NCBI GenBank assembly: GCA_963842885.1
Contig: CAWJIE010000003.1
Span: 352,001-416,000 of the forward strand
Origin: an uncultured Nitrososphaerota archaeon
GTDB lineage: Archaea; Thermoproteota; Nitrososphaeria; Conexivisphaerales; DTJL01
Length of the DNA stretch: 64,000 bases
Direction of reading: 5' to 3'
The notes below the pieces were generated by a model that had not been told where the DNA came from, made no database searches, and was given only the letters and a program-made list of their open reading frames with translations. The position numbers and the translations under genes are program-made. Of the stretch, positions 3,350 to 48,217 are shown in pieces. How positions within the stretch are numbered: position 1 is the stretch's first letter; each line of letters starts with the position of its first letter.

Positions 3350-4501
3350 ATGGACTGGAAAATCGTCATCGATGGAATCGCAAAGGCGACCTTGGCAGTC
3401 TTCGTCCTTGAAGTCCTCGCTCGTCTTTCAATGGCATTCAACATCGGGATTGCGGGAATCATCTACCTCGACGTGCTCTTCGCAGCCCTCTTGGTCCTCA
3501 CCGTTTTAGGCTATGGCGTCTACTATGGCAGGACCTACGGTGCGCCTGTCCCACTTGTCGCAACCGTAGTGCTGGGCGTCTCCGGGTTCGCCCTGGCCTT
3601 CGTCGCGCTGCTGGGATTCCCCGCATTCTCTTCTCCTGCCAGGACGCAGCTGTTCTGGCTGGGCACGCTCATGGTGGCTATCGCCATACCGCTTGGGTCA
3701 TATGCGTCTCGCCAGGTCAGGAAGGAGTGGCATGACCATGTGACTGACTTCGAGTTCGGCCATCACAGCTACAACCTGGCCAAGGACTTTGACGGCTGCG
3801 CCGACGGCAGACAGGGCCTCTCCGCACCCGCCTTCGGAGAGCCCGCCGTGAGTTCAGGAGGAGGGAACTGTGAAGGCGCGGGTATCAGGATCGAATGGGA
3901 GATGGGCTCAATCATCTTCCGCAATGAAGGCGGGAACGGAATCGCCGTAGCTGGGAGAGGCCACCTGGAGACATCTCATGGACAAGACAACCTGGACGGA
4001 ATCTGCGTCGTGTCTTCCACCTGTCCCTTGGAGATCCGGGACTCCCCTGCGAGGGTGGCGACCGACGCCGATGCCGCCGACCATGAATTCAAGACCCTAG
4101 GCGACCTGAGGGCCAGCGTAGCTTCCGCCAGCTCGGACATCGTCTCGGAGGCCGAGAGTTTCGTGAAAGAAGCGATCTCCCGCTACAACCCCGACGACAA
4201 GGTGGAATCGGTCTCAGTGGGAGGCTTCATCAACGTGGAAGAAAGCGCTCACAGAAAAATCGTAAGGGTCCCCGGCGTCTATGTCTATGACGGGCCAGAT
4301 GGAGAAGTCGTCCGCGTTGGCGGAAGGGTGGTGAAAAACGAAATAAGGTCGCCGGGCTCCATGATGGGATTCAACGGGGTCTTCAAGGAAGGAGAGAAGC
4401 CTGTGACTGTCATCAAGAACCTGTCCGGAGGTCTGAGCTTTGTCATAGTGGGGCCGCGTTGGGTGGCATGGAAGAAGGATGAGAAGGTGATATCTCCATG
4501 A
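3350..4501 (+). CDS. Hypothetical membrane protein (4 N-terminal TM helices plus soluble C-terminal domain)
   Basis: 383-aa ORF with hydrophobic N-terminus; TTAAATA TATA-like box upstream; overlaps the next ORF at ATGA. Confidence 0.7.
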   Translation: MDWKIVIDGIAKATLAVFVLEVLARLSMAFNIGIAGIIYLDVLFAALLVLTVLGYGVYYGRTYGAPVPLVATVVLGVSGFALAFVALLGFPAFSSPARTQLFWLGTLMVAIAIPLGSYASRQVRKEWHDHVTDFEFGHHSYNLAKDFDGCADGRQGLSAPAFGEPAVSSGGGNCEGAGIRIEWEMGSIIFRNEGGNGIAVAGRGHLETSHGQDNLDGICVVSSTCPLEIRDSPARVATDADAADHEFKTLGDLRASVASASSDIVSEAESFVKEAISRYNPDDKVESVSVGGFINVEESAHRKIVRVPGVYVYDGPDGEVVRVGGRVVKNEIRSPGSMMGFNGVFKEGEKPVTVIKNLSGGLSFVIVGPRWVAWKKDEKVISP

Positions 4502-4824
4502 CCTACTACTCAACGGTCCACAGCCTCGGCAACGTCGGAGCGCTTTTCCTCCTGGCATACATCATAGCCCTCCCTTTGGGTATGGTCGACCAGTTCGTAA
4601 AAGGGATACTATACGTTGCCCTAGCGCTGATACTCGTGTCAGCTTTCGACGCTCCTCGGCCCGGCAGGGTTTTCAAGGGGGTTCTCGGGAGAGTGGGAAC
4701 GCTGGCGTTCGTGTTCTGGCTGCTGGTAGTGGTGTTCAAGCTGGCGGTGGTGCCGCTGACTTCCGCCCAGCTCTTCTGGACCTTCGTCGCGGCGTTGGTA
4801 ATAAGGGCGGCTGTAGAGATATAG
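4498..4824 (+). CDS. Small hypothetical integral membrane protein
   Basis: 108 aa, about 4 hydrophobic segments, translationally coupled to the upstream ORF. Confidence 0.7.
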   Translation: MTYYSTVHSLGNVGALFLLAYIIALPLGMVDQFVKGILYVALALILVSAFDAPRPGRVFKGVLGRVGTLAFVFWLLVVVFKLAVVPLTSAQLFWTFVAALVIRAAVEI

Positions 4825-8527: not shown

Positions 8528-8617
8528 TGCCGCGGGCAGGATTTGAGCCTGCGACACATCGGTGACTGATGTCGATGAACTTCAGCCGATTGCTCTCCCA
8601 GGCTGAGCTACCGCGGC
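8528..8617 (-). tRNA. tRNA-Phe: tRNA-Phe(GAA) with a 16-nt intron at position 37/38 (8564-8579); CCA not encoded
   Basis: Reverse complement GCCGCGGTAGCTCAGCCTGGGAGAGCAATCGGCTGAAG[TTCATCGACATCAGTC]ACCGATGTGTCGCAGGCTCAAATCCTGCCCGCGGCA; acceptor stem GCCGCGG/CCGCGGC, anticodon stem ATCGG/CCGAT, central helix CTGA/TCAG typical of a bulge-helix-bulge splice site. Confidence 0.95.
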
Positions 8618-43323: not shown

Positions 43324-44421
43324 ATGTTCGACTACTCCGAGGAGTTCCAGAAGATGACCTCCTCTCTATCGGGAGGGGCGAGGATGATCATAATAAAGGG
43401 AAGGAGGAGGACGGGCAAGACTTCTCTCCTCCTGTCCTCCCTGAACGAACTCGGGCGCCCGTACGTCGTTCTTGATGGGAGGGCCTTCTCCTCCTCCCCT
43501 CAGGTGAGGCGGGAGGAGTTCGTCAAGCTGCTCGAGGACGGCCTGAACGAGTTCCTGAGGAGGGAGAGGAGGCTGGGCGCCAAGGTGATCGATGCGCTAA
43601 AGCACGTCCAGGGCCTCGAACGAACCTCAGGTGCCATCCCCGGCCTCTCCCTTCGCTGGGGGCCCCTGCCCCGGGACGCCGTGAACGTCTCCTCCATCTT
43701 CGATGCCCTTTCAGACGAAGCGGCCAGACAGAAGACCTCCTTTATCATCGCCATAGACGAAGCGCAGGAGTTCAGGAAGGTCATGCGCTACGACCTGACG
43801 AGCGTGCTCGCGCACGCGTACGACTACTGCCCGGGACTCAAGTTCGTGGTCACCGGCTCGGAGGCGGGGATGCTCCACAAGTTCCTTAGGGTCGATGACC
43901 CCGAAGCCCCCCTCTTCGGACGGGCGATGGTCGAGATAGAGCTCTCCGGCCTGACGAAGGAGAGGAGCGTCGAGTACCTTCGGGAAGGGTTCAGGCAGGT
44001 GGGGATGGAGGTGCCTGGGGATGTGCTCGAAGGAGCCCACCTGAGGTTCGACGGGATAATAGGCTGGCTGACCTACCTCGGCTTCAGGGCCAGGGAGGAG
44101 AGGGAGCTCGACCAGAAGGTGATTGAGGAGACGGCCTCGCTGGCATCCAAGATGGCGGCCTCGGAGTTCAGGAACTTCCTGGGCCTGTACAGGTCGGAGA
44201 GGTATCGGACAGTGATGAAGAGCCTGGCTGGAGGGAGCCTTTCGTGGGCGGACCTGAAGAGGGCGATCGAGTCCAAGGAGGGGATGAGGGTCGGACAGGG
44301 GGAGGTCACTAAGGTGCTCCACAACCTCGAGGACGCCGGCTTTGTGGCGAAGGATGAGGGAGGAGCTTATTCCATCTCGGAGCCGATGATAAGAGAAGCG
44401 GCCTCGAAGGGGATCATATAG
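43324..44421 (+). CDS. Archaeal ATPase family P-loop NTPase (ATPase_2 type) with C-terminal wHTH
   Basis: GRRRTGKTS Walker A, IAIDEAQE Walker B, VTGSEAG, PLFGR, DGIIGWL; the family-like N-terminus YFEEAPK begins at 43288, upstream of the first ATG. Confidence 0.88.
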   Translation: MFDYSEEFQKMTSSLSGGARMIIIKGRRRTGKTSLLLSSLNELGRPYVVLDGRAFSSSPQVRREEFVKLLEDGLNEFLRRERRLGAKVIDALKHVQGLERTSGAIPGLSLRWGPLPRDAVNVSSIFDALSDEAARQKTSFIIAIDEAQEFRKVMRYDLTSVLAHAYDYCPGLKFVVTGSEAGMLHKFLRVDDPEAPLFGRAMVEIELSGLTKERSVEYLREGFRQVGMEVPGDVLEGAHLRFDGIIGWLTYLGFRAREERELDQKVIEETASLASKMAASEFRNFLGLYRSERYRTVMKSLAGGSLSWADLKRAIESKEGMRVGQGEVTKVLHNLEDAGFVAKDEGGAYSISEPMIREAASKGII

Positions 44422-45100
44422 GAAGGATATGGTACATAGCCCTGCACTTGGTATATGGACATAGCGCGAGAGGGGCCGAGGCGAAGGACCCCGCCTTTAA
44501 TCTGCCATCGAGCGACAAGAGGTGGGTCCTTTTGCGTCGCTGGCGGAAGACAAGGCTCTGCATCTCCGCTGTGATGGTTCCAAGCCGGCCCGTCAATCGG
44601 TATTTAAGGCAAAGGCGCGGCCATTGAGGAGTATTTAAGGAGAAGACGATGGCGGTCGAGCTCTATTGTGAGGTTTCGAATCAGCCATAGATGGAAGACC
44701 TCGGATCTCGTCCAGAGAAGCGAAGGTGGATGCGGGATGCCAAAGGGCAGACGCGTAAACGGTTTGAAGCGATGGAACCATGCACGGCCTCCTTTTAACG
44801 CACTTTGCAGGGGCTTCCGGGGGCTCAGGAGCCGCCTTGGCCTAGATGATGAGCTTCCCTGGCGTTAGCGCGGGGAGGAATGCACGACCTCAGGCATTGC
44901 CCCTTTTCCTACGGCAGCGACAGCCATCCTGTCGGCCTAGGTAGGTCTCTAGTGTCGGTCCCATGTCATGATGTAGAGCGGGGGACGGCCATCCGGATCG
45001 AGACAGGCTCCCTAACCAGATGGAGTGCGCTATTGAGCTGGTTTGATCGTGAAGACGATGTTGGCAGTCCCGTGCATGTACGGGTTCCTTTCACCAGACT

Positions 45101-45900
45101 CCACTAAACTCTCGGCTCAATGAGACAAAGTGCCCTCTTGAGTTATTTTGAAGATGAGACGGAGCTTAGCAGGGCCGGGGCATCCGAGCTCCGTCCCCGT
45201 CGATTTTGCTAACGCGCCCCTAGGATGAGACGGAACGCCTTTTCAGGCCGATTTGGAGATGAGACAGCGTTAGCAGGTCCAGGGCGTCAAAATTTCGGTC
45301 CCCCTTTCCTGCTAACGCGACCGTCAGATGAAACAAGATGCCATTTTGGGCCATTTGGACGATGAGACGATGTTAGCAAAACCGGGGGCGCCAGTTTCTC
45401 CTCCGTCTAGACTGCCATTGCACCCGTCGGGTGAGACGAACGGCGCTTCCAGGTCGGTTCTGAGATGGGACGATATCAGTAGTTGGAGGGAGTCGAAATT
45501 CCGTCCTCTGCGATTTGCTATAGTCACCGCTTAACGAAACAAAGCGCCCTATAGGGCCGTTTTGACGATGAAACGGGCTCTAGCAAAGCCAAGGCCTCGA
45601 AATTTTGCCCCCTCCGACTTGCTAGAGTCGCGGCTTCAATGAGACAAAGCGCCCCCTTGGGTCATTTTGGCTACGAGACGAACTCTAGCAAAACCAGGGG
45701 TGTTCGAATCGTCTCCTCCGGGCTAATAACGCATCTATCTGATGAGACGAACGGCGCTTTTAGCCCGTCCTGACAATGAGACGATGTTATTAGCCACGAG
45801 GCCTCAAAATTCCCCGCCCTCCGCGCTAATAACGCCCCCTTCCGATGAGACGGAACGCCTTTTTGGCCCATTTTAACGATGAAACGATGTTATTAGGGCC
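45101..45900. repeat. Non-coding array of 8 structured units with a 103-105 bp period
   Basis: ATGAGAC-like box pairs at 45120/45154, 45225/45259, 45328/45362, 45431/45465, 45534/45568, 45639/45673, 45742/45776, 45845/45879 (always 34 bp apart), each pair enclosed by inverted arms. Confidence 0.92.
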
Positions 45901-46492
45901 GAGGGCGGTTCGTCGCCGCCATCGCCATGTCGTCGCCCCAAGCCCAACTGGCTGGCGTTCTTATGGGGGCTCATCTGAACCACTGGTCTTCGATCACGTC
46001 CTAGAGCTCTTCTTTGAACGGTTCTTTAGTGGCAAGCGGGAGTCTCCGGTGGCGGCTCTGGTTCCGGCTCGCTCTTCGCCTGGGATAGTAGAGCTTGACG
46101 GACCTACTTCTAGCATTCGCGTTGCCGACCCTCATCGCAATGCTCTAGCTAACGTAACCGTTCAAGACCTTCCGAAACTCTACCATCTCCACTATGACAA
46201 CGGCAGAAGCATGAGGGGCGATTTAACCACCCATCTTCAGTCGAGGGGGCTGAGCGCGGAAGCTGCTTCAGGTCCTCTTCTTCCGTTGTGTTCCATCATC
46301 GGGACTTCTTGGCAAGTGTCCGGTTCGGGACCTGCAGCTAGGCTCGGGCAGCGAAATCCCCGTCCGGAAGTGAGGAGTCTAGAAGGCCAGACTTTGGCAT
46401 GTCCTTTGTCCGTCGTATCATGGAGTCTGATCTGCCAATCGACAGAGGATCTTCTCCCCAGCTCTTTTAAGTTGAGCAATGACCGAGTATAC

Positions 46493-46618
46493 ATGACAGA
46501 GAACAAAACCGATGACAAGGATTCCGACGAGGTCGAGCTGCGCGCGGCCGTCAAGGAGCGTTTTGAAATCAGAAGAGAGATAGAAGGGCTCCGGCGCGAA
46601 GTCGGGAGCCTGTCCTGA
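46493..46618 (+). CDS. Small coiled-coil-like protein (41 aa), convergent with the integrase
   Basis: MTENKTDDKDSDEVELRAAVKERFEIRREIEGLRREVGSLS; TTTTAAG TATA-like box at ~46465. Confidence 0.5.
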   Translation: MTENKTDDKDSDEVELRAAVKERFEIRREIEGLRREVGSLS

Positions 46619-46623
46619 CCCCG

Positions 46624-47997
46624 CTACTTGCCGAGCAGGACCCGCACGACGTCCGGCGGGATTGCCTTCCCTTCTTGCACGTACTTCGTCAATATCCGCC
46701 GGGTGCGTTCGTCGTTTTCCTCCTGCCTGGCCTCGAGCTCTTCTATCCTTCTCTGTTGCTTCATCAATTCCGGATCGGTTCCCTCTACGATCAGAGGGAG
46801 CTCCTCGTGAATCGGTGCTCCGCAGCCCCCGCAGAACTCGTTCATCCTAGGGTTCTCCCGCCGGCAGTTCGGGCAGAGGACAAACTCCGGCTGGGGCTTC
46901 TGGGTCTCGACGCCACCGTACACGTTCTCCAAGACTTCGTTGACGTCCTGTGCCGCGAGCTCGATGTACACCGCCGGCATCTTGCTTCCGGGCGCCCACC
47001 CGAACTTCCTCCTCATTATCTCCTCGTTCAGGTTGTGCTTGGCGTCTTTCGTGGCGGACATGTGCCGGAAGATGTTGGGATGCACGGGCCTCGGGATCCC
47101 CGCCACCTCGCCCAGCCGGCGCAGCGCCCTGTAGCAGGCGTCGTAGCGCCAGCGCTTGCAGACCAGCCTTCCTCGTTCGGTCATCAGCCAGAGCGGGGCC
47201 TTAGGGTCATCCCTGTATGGGTGCGTCTCAAGCCACTGCGTGAGCAGCATCCTCGACCTCTGCACCACCAGCCGTCGCCCGACCGTTTTCGTCATCTCAT
47301 CGGTGAAGTCGATCAGTACCCTGTACTCCTCCTTGCCGTTCCTGATGACCCGCTCATGCCTGATGTTGCCTATCAGGAGGCGCAGAAGCTCGCCCGGCCG
47401 GAGACCCAGCTCCTCGGCGACGGCGAGGAACGCCTTAATCATGATGTCGCTGGTCGCCCTGATGAGAGCTTCGAACTCCTCCTCCTCTATCACCGAGGGC
47501 CTCTTCTTGTCCGATTGCTTGAGGTTCGCCTTAAGCCCGTCGACCAAGTCCGGGTAGTGGTGGTCCTCCCTCCACTTCTCGTACTTTCCCTTGGGAGCCT
47601 TCAGCCACTGGTAGTATCGCTTGATCGTTATGACTATGTCGCGCTCGGTACGCGGTTCGTAGATGCCAGAGTAGAGCCACTTCTTGAGCTCGGCCACTTT
47701 CTTCTGGTTCATCCTGATCAGGGTCGTCCTGTTGTCGAACGCCCACATGGCCAGGTCCTGTAGGATGATGACGTACTTGGCCACCCTCACGTCGGATATG
47801 TTCTGGCCTATCAGGACGTCCACGAACCTCAGGATGGAGCGGCAGTCCTTCGGGCTTATCCTCCTCGGCCTTCCGGTCTTCTGCTCGATGGTGCCTTCCC
47901 GCGCTGACCGCTTGAGATGGGCGATCGCGCGCTCGATGCGCCGCTTCCCGCCAAAGATGTCGTGGTCCTCGACCTGCGCACCCGCGATTTGGTTCAT
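46624..47997 (-). CDS. Tyrosine recombinase/site-specific integrase with C-terminal zinc ribbon and coiled coil
   Basis: GLRPGELL (Arg), TKT (Lys), HPNIFRH, FGW, AVY (Tyr), CPNC...CGGC; TATA-like element ~25 bp upstream of ATG47997. Confidence 0.92.
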   Translation of the reverse strand: MNQIAGAQVEDHDIFGGKRRIERAIAHLKRSAREGTIEQKTGRPRRISPKDCRSILRFVDVLIGQNISDVRVAKYVIILQDLAMWAFDNRTTLIRMNQKKVAELKKWLYSGIYEPRTERDIVITIKRYYQWLKAPKGKYEKWREDHHYPDLVDGLKANLKQSDKKRPSVIEEEEFEALIRATSDIMIKAFLAVAEELGLRPGELLRLLIGNIRHERVIRNGKEEYRVLIDFTDEMTKTVGRRLVVQRSRMLLTQWLETHPYRDDPKAPLWLMTERGRLVCKRWRYDACYRALRRLGEVAGIPRPVHPNIFRHMSATKDAKHNLNEEIMRRKFGWAPGSKMPAVYIELAAQDVNEVLENVYGGVETQKPQPEFVLCPNCRRENPRMNEFCGGCGAPIHEELPLIVEGTDPELMKQQRRIEELEARQEENDERTRRILTKYVQEGKAIPPDVVRVLLGK

Positions 47998-48217
47998 GAT
48001 CGGGTACGGCGAATTACCTTTTAAGACGGGTAAGGGATTTGGATGTCTTCGTGGAGGCGCGCCCACCGCATTTTCACTGCTACCGGAATGCCCAGGGTTA
48101 GTCATGATGGCAGCTGCTGCCCCGCATGGCGACACCATGATGGCCCGGATTCCGCCATCTCCTTGGCAACATTCATAAGGCGATTCAGCCGAAAAATACT
48201 AGAATCGGAGAGAGGGC

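Follow-up and report, generated by a model that had tools for sequence, protein, structure and literature searches.

What purpose might be served by a run of eight hairpin-capable repeats in the genome of an uncultured Nitrososphaerota archaeon (Conexivisphaerales, DTJL01)? The window analysed here is a stretch of 64,000 nucleotides (assembly GCA_963842885.1, contig CAWJIE010000003.1, positions 352,001 to 416,000), and the array in question occupies 45088-45911 within it. Each unit carries two direct copies of a short box enclosed by inverted arms, which an original prediction, made from the letters alone, described as changing together from unit to unit; base pairing, or unit-specific recombination and target sequences, had been suggested as the cause. 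Complementarity of the arms is kept across sequence classes, both relatives found to carry the array have it next to the 3' end of one and the same small gene, and a tyrosine recombinase marks an integrated mobile element, now decayed, as its setting. From these sequence features we tentatively read the array as an origin- or centromere-like DNA control site of a plasmid-like mobile element, of which the window would hold a relic; protein binding, extrusion of the stems and a role as origin or in partition are what we infer. The existence of the module is confirmed; its design is unusual and its distribution narrow, and the window copy is probably decaying.

Very little is known of the replication and segregation of plasmids and integrated elements in soil and peat archaea. 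A small orphan gene joined to tandem, covarying repeats able to form hairpins is a compact and concrete candidate for a control site of this kind, and it echoes the stem-loop origin of the pRN plasmids, the mechanism of which is still unknown. Covariation alone is no proof of RNA; strand-symmetric mismatches and templated mutation need checking as well.

Anatomy of the array

The eight units, each 103-105 bp, stand head to tail with start-to-start distances of 105, 103, 103, 103, 105, 103 and 103 bp. Every unit contains two direct copies of the 7-mer RYGRRAC, most commonly read as GATGAGACG, giving 16 boxes over the array, and the distance from box to box is exactly 34 bp in all eight units. 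The two-box pattern matched ten times in the whole 2.03-Mb assembly, eight of these inside the array; the same pattern written backwards, used as a control, matched five times. Identity between units is only 62-76%, a divergence which explains why Tandem Repeats Finder did not report the array. As 103 is not a multiple of three, no reading frame can repeat across the units.

The spacer between units is conserved and consists of a G run, an A/T-rich core and a C run. A second dyad lies inside the A/T-rich spacer, and the unit is palindromic throughout except for the boxes. At three of the seven junctions, where both neighbours belong to one arm class, a unit's right arm can also pair with the left arm that follows it; leaving out the boxes, the array is thus made up of consecutive palindromes, and each unit has two dyads. 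The left edge is formed by a decayed, degenerate unit 0, which the covariance model of the unit did not detect at E 0.01. The A/T content has peaks, given here without a significance test, at unit harmonics 5, 6 and 10 (20.7, 17.2 and 10.3 bp). Clusters of A/T recur about every 10 bp over the central 60 bp of the unit and may represent helical phasing or bending.

Complementarity of the arms across sequence classes

The pairing register was determined for 12 units: the eight in the window, two from a genome of the same genus (G004) and two from a metagenome contig (L078). One fixed register applies to all 12, the paired coordinates summing to twice the start of box 1 plus 31 to 33, and, counted from where box 1 starts, the dyad falls at 15.5-16.5 bp; the original prediction gave 16-16.5 bp for the seven units with clear arms. 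All arm pairs listed in the original prediction are present and several are longer, reaching 16-20 nt in units 3, 7 and 8; the imperfect pairing of unit 1 and the degeneracy of unit 4 were likewise as described. The best-paired core of the arms spans positions -19 to -12 relative to box 1, where 8-12 of the 12 units are Watson-Crick paired at each position, and the outer C and G runs make up a second paired block. Between the boxes a small central hairpin shares the same dyad, with variable sequence and weak support.

The arms fall into classes: A (units 2 and 3), B (units 5 and 6), C (units 7 and 8 with both L078 units), D (units b and c of G004, with unit 1 close to them) and E (the degenerate unit 4). 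Three such classes, with both arms of a unit changing together, had been recognised beforehand, and both the permutation of arms and counts over aligned rows bear this out. With one representative per class (U2, U6, U7, G4c, U1 and U4), own arms paired at 42 of 60 Watson-Crick positions, the best derangement gave 32, and one of 720 permutations reached 42; with alternative representatives own arms paired at 39 of 60, which two of the 720 permutations reached. An alignment of 13 rows fitted to the covariance model, one of them a weak minus-strand match, had 84.1% of cells paired against 74.7% in shuffles (none of 500 reached 84.1%), pairing fell to 35-50% when the partner was slid by one to three columns, and 8 of the 11 pairs of the arm helix had changed on both sides; these figures overstate independence, because the alignment was model-fitted and its rows are related, units within a class not being independent. 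Arms which remain complementary while their sequence varies by class imply either intrastrand pairing or the copying of one arm from the other.

Table 1. Coordinates of the array units and of neighbouring features in the window.
Feature	Coordinates	Strand	Details
Degenerate unit 0, decayed left array edge	45000..45087		box-2-like and right-arm-like stretch 45042-45066, 76% to matching part of unit 3
Unit 1	45088..45187		boxes 45120, 45154; arms 45104-45111 / 45162-45169 (7/8)
Unit 2, class A	45193..45291		boxes 45225, 45259; arms 45207-45215 / 45267-45275 (9/9)
Unit 3, class A	45296..45394		boxes 45328, 45362; arms 45300-45316 / 45372-45388 (17 nt, 76%)
Unit 4, degenerate	45399..45497		boxes 45431, 45465, both off consensus; clear pairing only in outer CC/GG
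Unit 5, class B	45502..45601		boxes 45534, 45568; arms 45514-45525 / 45576-45587 (10/12)
Unit 6, class B	45606..45706		boxes 45639, 45673; arms 45619-45628 / 45682-45691 (10/10)
Unit 7, class C	45710..45808		boxes 45742, 45776; arms 45715-45730 / 45786-45801 (16 nt, 88%)
Unit 8, class C	45813..45911		boxes 45845, 45879; arms 45814-45833 / 45889-45908 (20 nt, 90%)
Decayed 3'-end remnant of the 246-284-aa array-linked gene	45912..46070	-	three-way DNA alignment, blastn/tblastx
Tyrosine recombinase, 504 aa, C-terminal zinc ribbon	46624..48138	-	Pfam Phage_integrase 3.3e-10; PHROG integrase
Archaeal-type ATPase, 365 aa, MCM_C-like winged helix	43324..44421	+	Pfam ATPase_2 2.3e-12, MCM_C 5.5e-11

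Folding of the units

Folding of each unit against shuffles gave single-stranded DNA (ssDNA) z-scores for units 1 to 8 of +0.86, +0.76, -0.55, +0.51, -1.37, -2.52, -2.41 and -3.65, and of +0.65, -0.54 and +0.70 for three units of the relatives. Folding as RNA yielded 0.95, 0.04, -2.61, -0.02, -1.94, -1.77, -3.19 and -4.72 on the plus strand and -0.99, -1.49, -2.75, 0.20, -1.07, -1.98, -3.74 and -3.80 on the minus strand; the means on the two strands are about -1.7 and -1.95, and stability is about equal. Single units are thus not exceptionally stable: as ssDNA, units 6 to 8 have z below -2, and the other eight of the 11 fold no better than shuffles. From a plain MAFFT alignment of 11 units RNAalifold recovered no structure on the plus strand, only nine outer pairs on the minus strand and no inner hairpin on either; an alignment of eight units gave 23 pairs.

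Mismatches flanked by pairs in the arms comprise six G.T and seven A.C, beside 171 Watson-Crick arm cells over the 12 units. In the inner hairpin region, in the fixed register and on the plus strand, there are seven G.T and two A.C mismatches. The plus strand has runs of T4-T5 within the units, T5 occurring in 3 of 13 units. Since the arms have no G.U bias and the strands fold equally well, a strand-symmetric DNA palindrome fits better than an RNA made from one strand, and it is favoured, not decisively, as the paired molecule. Of the base pairing originally proposed, what stands is that the arms are kept complementary across classes, be the paired molecule RNA or DNA.

Relatives carrying the array

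The covariance model of the unit found the array in 2 of 61 related genomes, namely the window's own and G004, which amounts to two of five genomes in the genus and two of nine in the family. L078 also bears it. The boxes are 34 bp apart in three of the five units of these relatives and 33 and 39 bp apart in the other two. The G004 array has just two good units and one degenerate unit. In the window's own assembly (2.03 Mb, 87% complete) the model and the two-box pattern identified a single locus, and BLAST of the array against that genome returned only the array itself.

A class-wide search with the two-box pattern found it in one of 401 genomes, the window's own; G004 is missed by this pattern because one of its units has 33-bp spacing. 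A pattern scan of genome contigs gave 30 loci, none real by the covariance model. Two of the candidates were taken as chance matches: 4484-4581 (plus strand) of L033, a bacterial metagenome-assembled genome contig titled Rhodoblastus sp. (22.3 bits, E 0.0023), and L023 (E 0.2 to the unit model). Among metagenome contigs at least 116 stretches matched the pattern and 80 loci were scored, with L078 the only real array among those scored; the weak L099 locus (E 0.4-0.7) was not counted as real. Three pattern scans of viral contigs produced 0, 1 and 24 loci, none of them real, and blastn of the array against PLSDB plasmids and INPHARED phages gave no match. At gathering score the only Rfam matches in the window were two tRNAs; at E up to 10, positions 44000-47000 gave four chance-level matches and no relevant family, the comparison taking in C/D-box sRNA, hammerhead, twister and CRISPR repeat families. 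No curated RNA family, plasmid record or phage record describing the module was found. The module is also not described in the literature on centromeres, thaumarchaeal mobile elements, template switching and pRN1 that was consulted, which is no proof of its absence from print.

The array-linked gene

G004 and L078 share a minus-strand gene of 246-284 aa, and in both the array adjoins its 3' end. In L078 the last unit ends 20 nt from the stop codon of the gene, and in G004 the last unit overlaps the stop by 17 nt. The flanks beyond the gene are unrelated between loci. Of this gene the window retains only a decayed 3'-terminal stretch, about 150 bp long and with no open frame, and the protein was not found in the window's own assembly.

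The gene family is represented by five clusters in 5.8 billion proteins and is present in one of 401 genomes of the class. The protein belongs to no Pfam, NCBIfam or PHROG family, a sequence search of the PDB returned nothing below E 0.4, and ESM Atlas matches were to unnamed clusters only. A search of 1.84 billion representatives gave three matches at E 0.001, among which P0007 (E 7.5e-5) is the sole remote relative; P0007 scores 22.0 bits against Pfam HTH_ParB, a ParB-type helix-turn-helix (HTH), under the cut-off of 22.6. A further match, P0006, is a chlorophyll-binding protein aligned over 25 residues and was judged spurious. The G004 copy (L012, 10190-10930, minus strand) is without the first approximately 49 residues of its longer homologues, including part of a predicted helix-turn-helix, and may itself be truncated.

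Upstream of the array-linked gene in L078, at 1022-2218 on the minus strand, lies an open reading frame (ORF) of 378-398 aa with a proline/glutamine-rich linker. It has a Brz-type zinc-ribbon match of 7.2e-5, below the cut-off, and no counterpart in G004 or the window. To the eye the 398-aa form looked like the N-terminal part of ParB, a resemblance that received no support from the libraries.

Variation among closely related strains

Contigs from four public DNA runs, each belonging to a different study, represent near-identical strains; for these 40 of 92 differences were shown, a selected view. The number of units differs among closely related strains: in three runs extra units are inserted between 45709 and 45710, about two of them in run X9. 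The arms of the extra units, as read from loose ends and inserted letters, form a sixth class and pair at 10 of 10 positions. Joints in the strain contigs add or remove whole units, and no excision or integration junction was seen inside a unit.

Differences in the arms at 45103, 45308, 45309 and 45521 convert mismatches of the window into Watson-Crick pairs. In unit 1, 45103 A>G gains a pair in all four other strains; in unit 3, C>T at 45308 and 45309 turns two C.A mismatches into pairs in other strains; and in unit 5, 45521 T>G mends a T.C mismatch in all four. In the boxes, other strains have the consensus letter at 45266, 45431, 45468 and 45883 where the window is off consensus.

The array as a proposed DNA control site

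According to the reading we favour, a plasmid-like element would have integrated into the archaeal chromosome, with the array as its DNA control site. The 103-bp module is an imperfect palindrome, with outer arms of 8-20 bp and the central hairpin on a common dyad, which could extrude as a hairpin or cruciform. The two direct boxes of 7-9 bp, 34 bp apart, would be iteron-like sites for a DNA-binding protein encoded by the element, the likeliest binder being the small protein encoded beside the array in G004 and L078, where the repeats adjoin the 3' end of its gene. Extrudable stems might supply structure needed by a replication origin or a partition complex, in which case the integrity of the stem would matter and its sequence would not, as in the pRN plasmid stem-loop. 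The window element would then be a relic, its partner gene decayed and several of its boxes and arm pairs bearing private mutations.

Such a control site is suggested because arm mismatches and RNA folding are strand-symmetric, because the unit outside its boxes is palindromic with a second dyad in the spacer, and because spacing is rigid, both between boxes (34 bp) and in the period (103-105 bp), with harmonics in A/T content. It is suggested also by the gene which the array abuts in two of two relatives and whose decayed end the window retains, by the near-threshold HTH_ParB match of P0007, and by the sporadic distribution (2 of 61 relatives, 2 of 5 in the genus), the neighbouring integrase and the strain-variable number of units. 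A precedent is provided by pRN-family archaeal plasmids, which are reported to need a stem-loop of about 100 nt immediately 3' of their replication gene; this stem-loop is conserved in structure but poorly so in sequence, and a compensatory mutation restored replication (PMC4234260). The array resembles this origin in having stem-loop units of about 95 nt just 3' of a gene, covarying arms and an archaeal mobile element as its setting. It differs in being tandem, the pRN origin being one stem-loop for which no conserved box pair is reported, and in its gene, which in pRN encodes a primase-helicase (ORF904-type) and here is a small orphan with at most a ParB-type HTH (PMC4234260). The host lineage is different too.

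The centromere sopC of plasmid F offers a second comparison. It is reported to consist of 12 near-identical units of 43 bp, each with one 16-bp inverted-repeat binding site, situated immediately downstream of the partition-protein gene sopB (PMC3177203). The array shares with it the plan of tandem direct repeats containing inverted repeats, and unlike it has units of 103 bp, unit-variable arms 51-55 bp apart and two direct boxes, and no ParA was seen. Judged as a sopC-type site, the array abuts its gene in two of two relatives, and membership of that gene in the ParB-HTH family comes only through P0007, at 22.0 against 22.6 bits. Iteron arrays are similar in that their short direct repeats keep a fixed spacing and that a mobile-element gene for a helix-turn-helix protein lies next to them. 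The iterons themselves usually measure 17-22 bp, stand close together and are not enclosed in covarying palindromes, whereas the boxes of the array are so enclosed. On sequence grounds the array would appear to be kin to known DNA control repeats and stem-loops of mobile elements, in a new form.

Several observations weigh against a control site. The ssDNA z lies below -2 in just 3 of 11 units, the other eight folding like shuffles, and a stem of 9-10 bp closing a 55-nt loop is weak. Units of sopC-type centromeres are near-identical (PMC3177203), while those of the array are 62-76% alike. Between strains the array evolves no slower than its flanks, by rough counts of differing letters per contig piece, and in the window genome it persists well with its partner gene gone. 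The ParB-HTH link is indirect and below the Pfam cut-off, the 284-aa protein itself has only sub-threshold HTH matches, and its AlphaFold model was unusable, with a mean pLDDT (predicted local distance difference test) of 44. No ParA or Rep gene was seen on the related contigs, which end within 1.5-2 kb of the array. Nor does the reading explain why a double-stranded binding site should need unit-specific arms.

Alternative explanations

The units may instead act as RNA, a possible though doubtful reading in which either strand of the array would encode structured small RNAs of about 95 nt per unit, a long stem and an internal loop displaying the two boxes around a small hairpin. Such an RNA could bind protein, for example as a sponge with 16 sites or as a new ribonucleoprotein, the boxes being GA-rich on the plus strand, and, with a stem of its own, each unit would be kept from pairing wrongly with its neighbours along a long transcript. 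Structured RNAs are classically recognised by stems that covary around conserved motifs in the loops, as in the 8 of 11 doubly changed arm pairs, and arms that differ from unit to unit suit the correct local folding of a tandem transcript. The inner hairpin contributes its plus-strand excess of G.T over A.C, RNA z is below -1.7 in five of eight plus-strand and four of eight minus-strand units, and in the relatives a transcript of the adjoining gene would contain the minus strand at its 3' end. Against this stand the lack of any relevant Rfam family at either threshold, arms with no G.U excess, equal stability of the strands and the inner hairpin missed by RNAalifold. Read by eye, the spacer holds no promoter-like motif placed so as to include the left arm in a unit transcript. 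The T4-T5 runs present in every unit would favour termination by archaeal RNA polymerase on the plus strand. Archaeal C/D-box small RNAs combine a C box with a D box (CUGA) placed in register and have guides of 12 nt; the boxes of the array are one GA-rich motif repeated directly 34 nt apart, CUGA precedes box 2 in two of eight units, and no D box is in register. Attempts to read the boxes by eye as hammerhead, C/D-box or k-turn motifs were dropped; the flanking consensus letters vary between units. If transcribed, the units would constitute a new class of archaeal structured RNA, a multi-site protein-binding sponge or scaffold on a mobile element, which we consider unlikely; its DNA counterpart, a plasmid origin or centromere of tandem cruciform modules whose extruded form is read by a protein, would be nearly as novel. 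It is quite improbable that the minus-strand hairpins serve the adjacent gene as terminators or mRNA stabilisers, in the manner of repetitive extragenic palindromic (REP) and bacterial interspersed mosaic elements (BIME). The array begins at the stop codon of the gene or within 20 nt of it in both relatives, a minus-strand hairpin is followed in each unit by a T3-T4 run of the spacer, and minus-strand RNA folds slightly more stably than plus-strand RNA in seven of eight units; as in REP/BIME, imperfect palindromes cluster at gene 3' ends with alternative pairings between neighbours. Eight copies, each with two conserved boxes at fixed spacing, are left unexplained, and archaeal termination is not known to need hairpins. 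Bacterial REPs moreover are dispersed, with tens to hundreds of copies in a genome, and have a link to RAYT transposases, whereas the array occupies one locus per genome and no RAYT was seen.

The array could also be a palindromic tandem repeat free of function, its complementary arms arising from template switching during replication and from duplication of units, with no selection on pairing; we hold this to be unlikely as well. Template switching can create or maintain hairpin complementarity in one step, as stated in a preprint (bioRxiv 10.1101/2021.04.15.439925), and could have yielded the arms in that way. Arm classes shared by adjacent units (2-3, 5-6 and 7-8) point to recent duplications. 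The partner gene is lost in the window genome, the array changes between strains at least as much as its flanks and varies in unit number, and the folding energies of most units are unexceptional. On the other side, the boxes and their 34-bp spacing are retained in all eight window units and in three of five units of the relatives despite 62-76% identity, the four off-consensus box positions of the window hold the consensus letter in other strains, at least five arm classes are each still complementary, and the link to the 3' end of the same gene is kept in both relatives. A very remote chance is left for attC-like sites, folded as single strands and recombined by the neighbouring tyrosine recombinase, a likeness raised in the original prediction that is not supported. 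The units do recall attC in their imperfect inverted repeats, in the recombinase about 700 bp away and in the AAC...GTT found at the inner ends of the arms in four window units. The attC core consensus is RYYYAAC and GTTRRRY; the array's 7-mers ending in AAC (classes A and C) or starting with GTT break this purine/pyrimidine pattern at two or more positions, and classes B and D are without AAC/GTT. The interior of attC is variable, unlike the conserved two-box interior here; the units abut at 103 bp, with no cassettes or cassette ORFs between them; and beside the G004 array no integrase lies in the roughly 2.7 kb on its left side or the 1.5 kb on its right. The best NCBIfam match of the recombinase, XerA_Arch, scores 51.1 bits against a cut-off of 220, and no integron-integrase-specific model matched it at E 0.01. 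For arms serving to specify targets, also proposed originally, the window's own genome held nothing beyond chance: arms and loops gave 374 short matches there, the longest being 15 nt when exact and 17 nt when one mismatch was allowed, with no E below 0.023.

Neighbouring features of the window

The tyrosine recombinase is unusually long at 504 aa, and its zinc ribbon is the Pfam DZR/Zn_Ribbon_1 match at residues 422-444. A search for att sites found no direct repeats of 13 nt or more shared by the integrase flank with one of the tRNA genes or with the sequence on the left side of the array. The ATPase on the other side of the array has no similarity in the G004 locus and is not conserved beside related arrays. 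Ribosomal protein S8e is present, which marks the genome as archaeal; a search of the assembly, 87% complete, found no McrA. At 8528-8617 on the minus strand Rfam identified a tRNA of 90 nt (53 bits), for which ARAGORN gave no anticodon ('tRNA-???'); this may be the gene of an archaeal tRNA with an intron.

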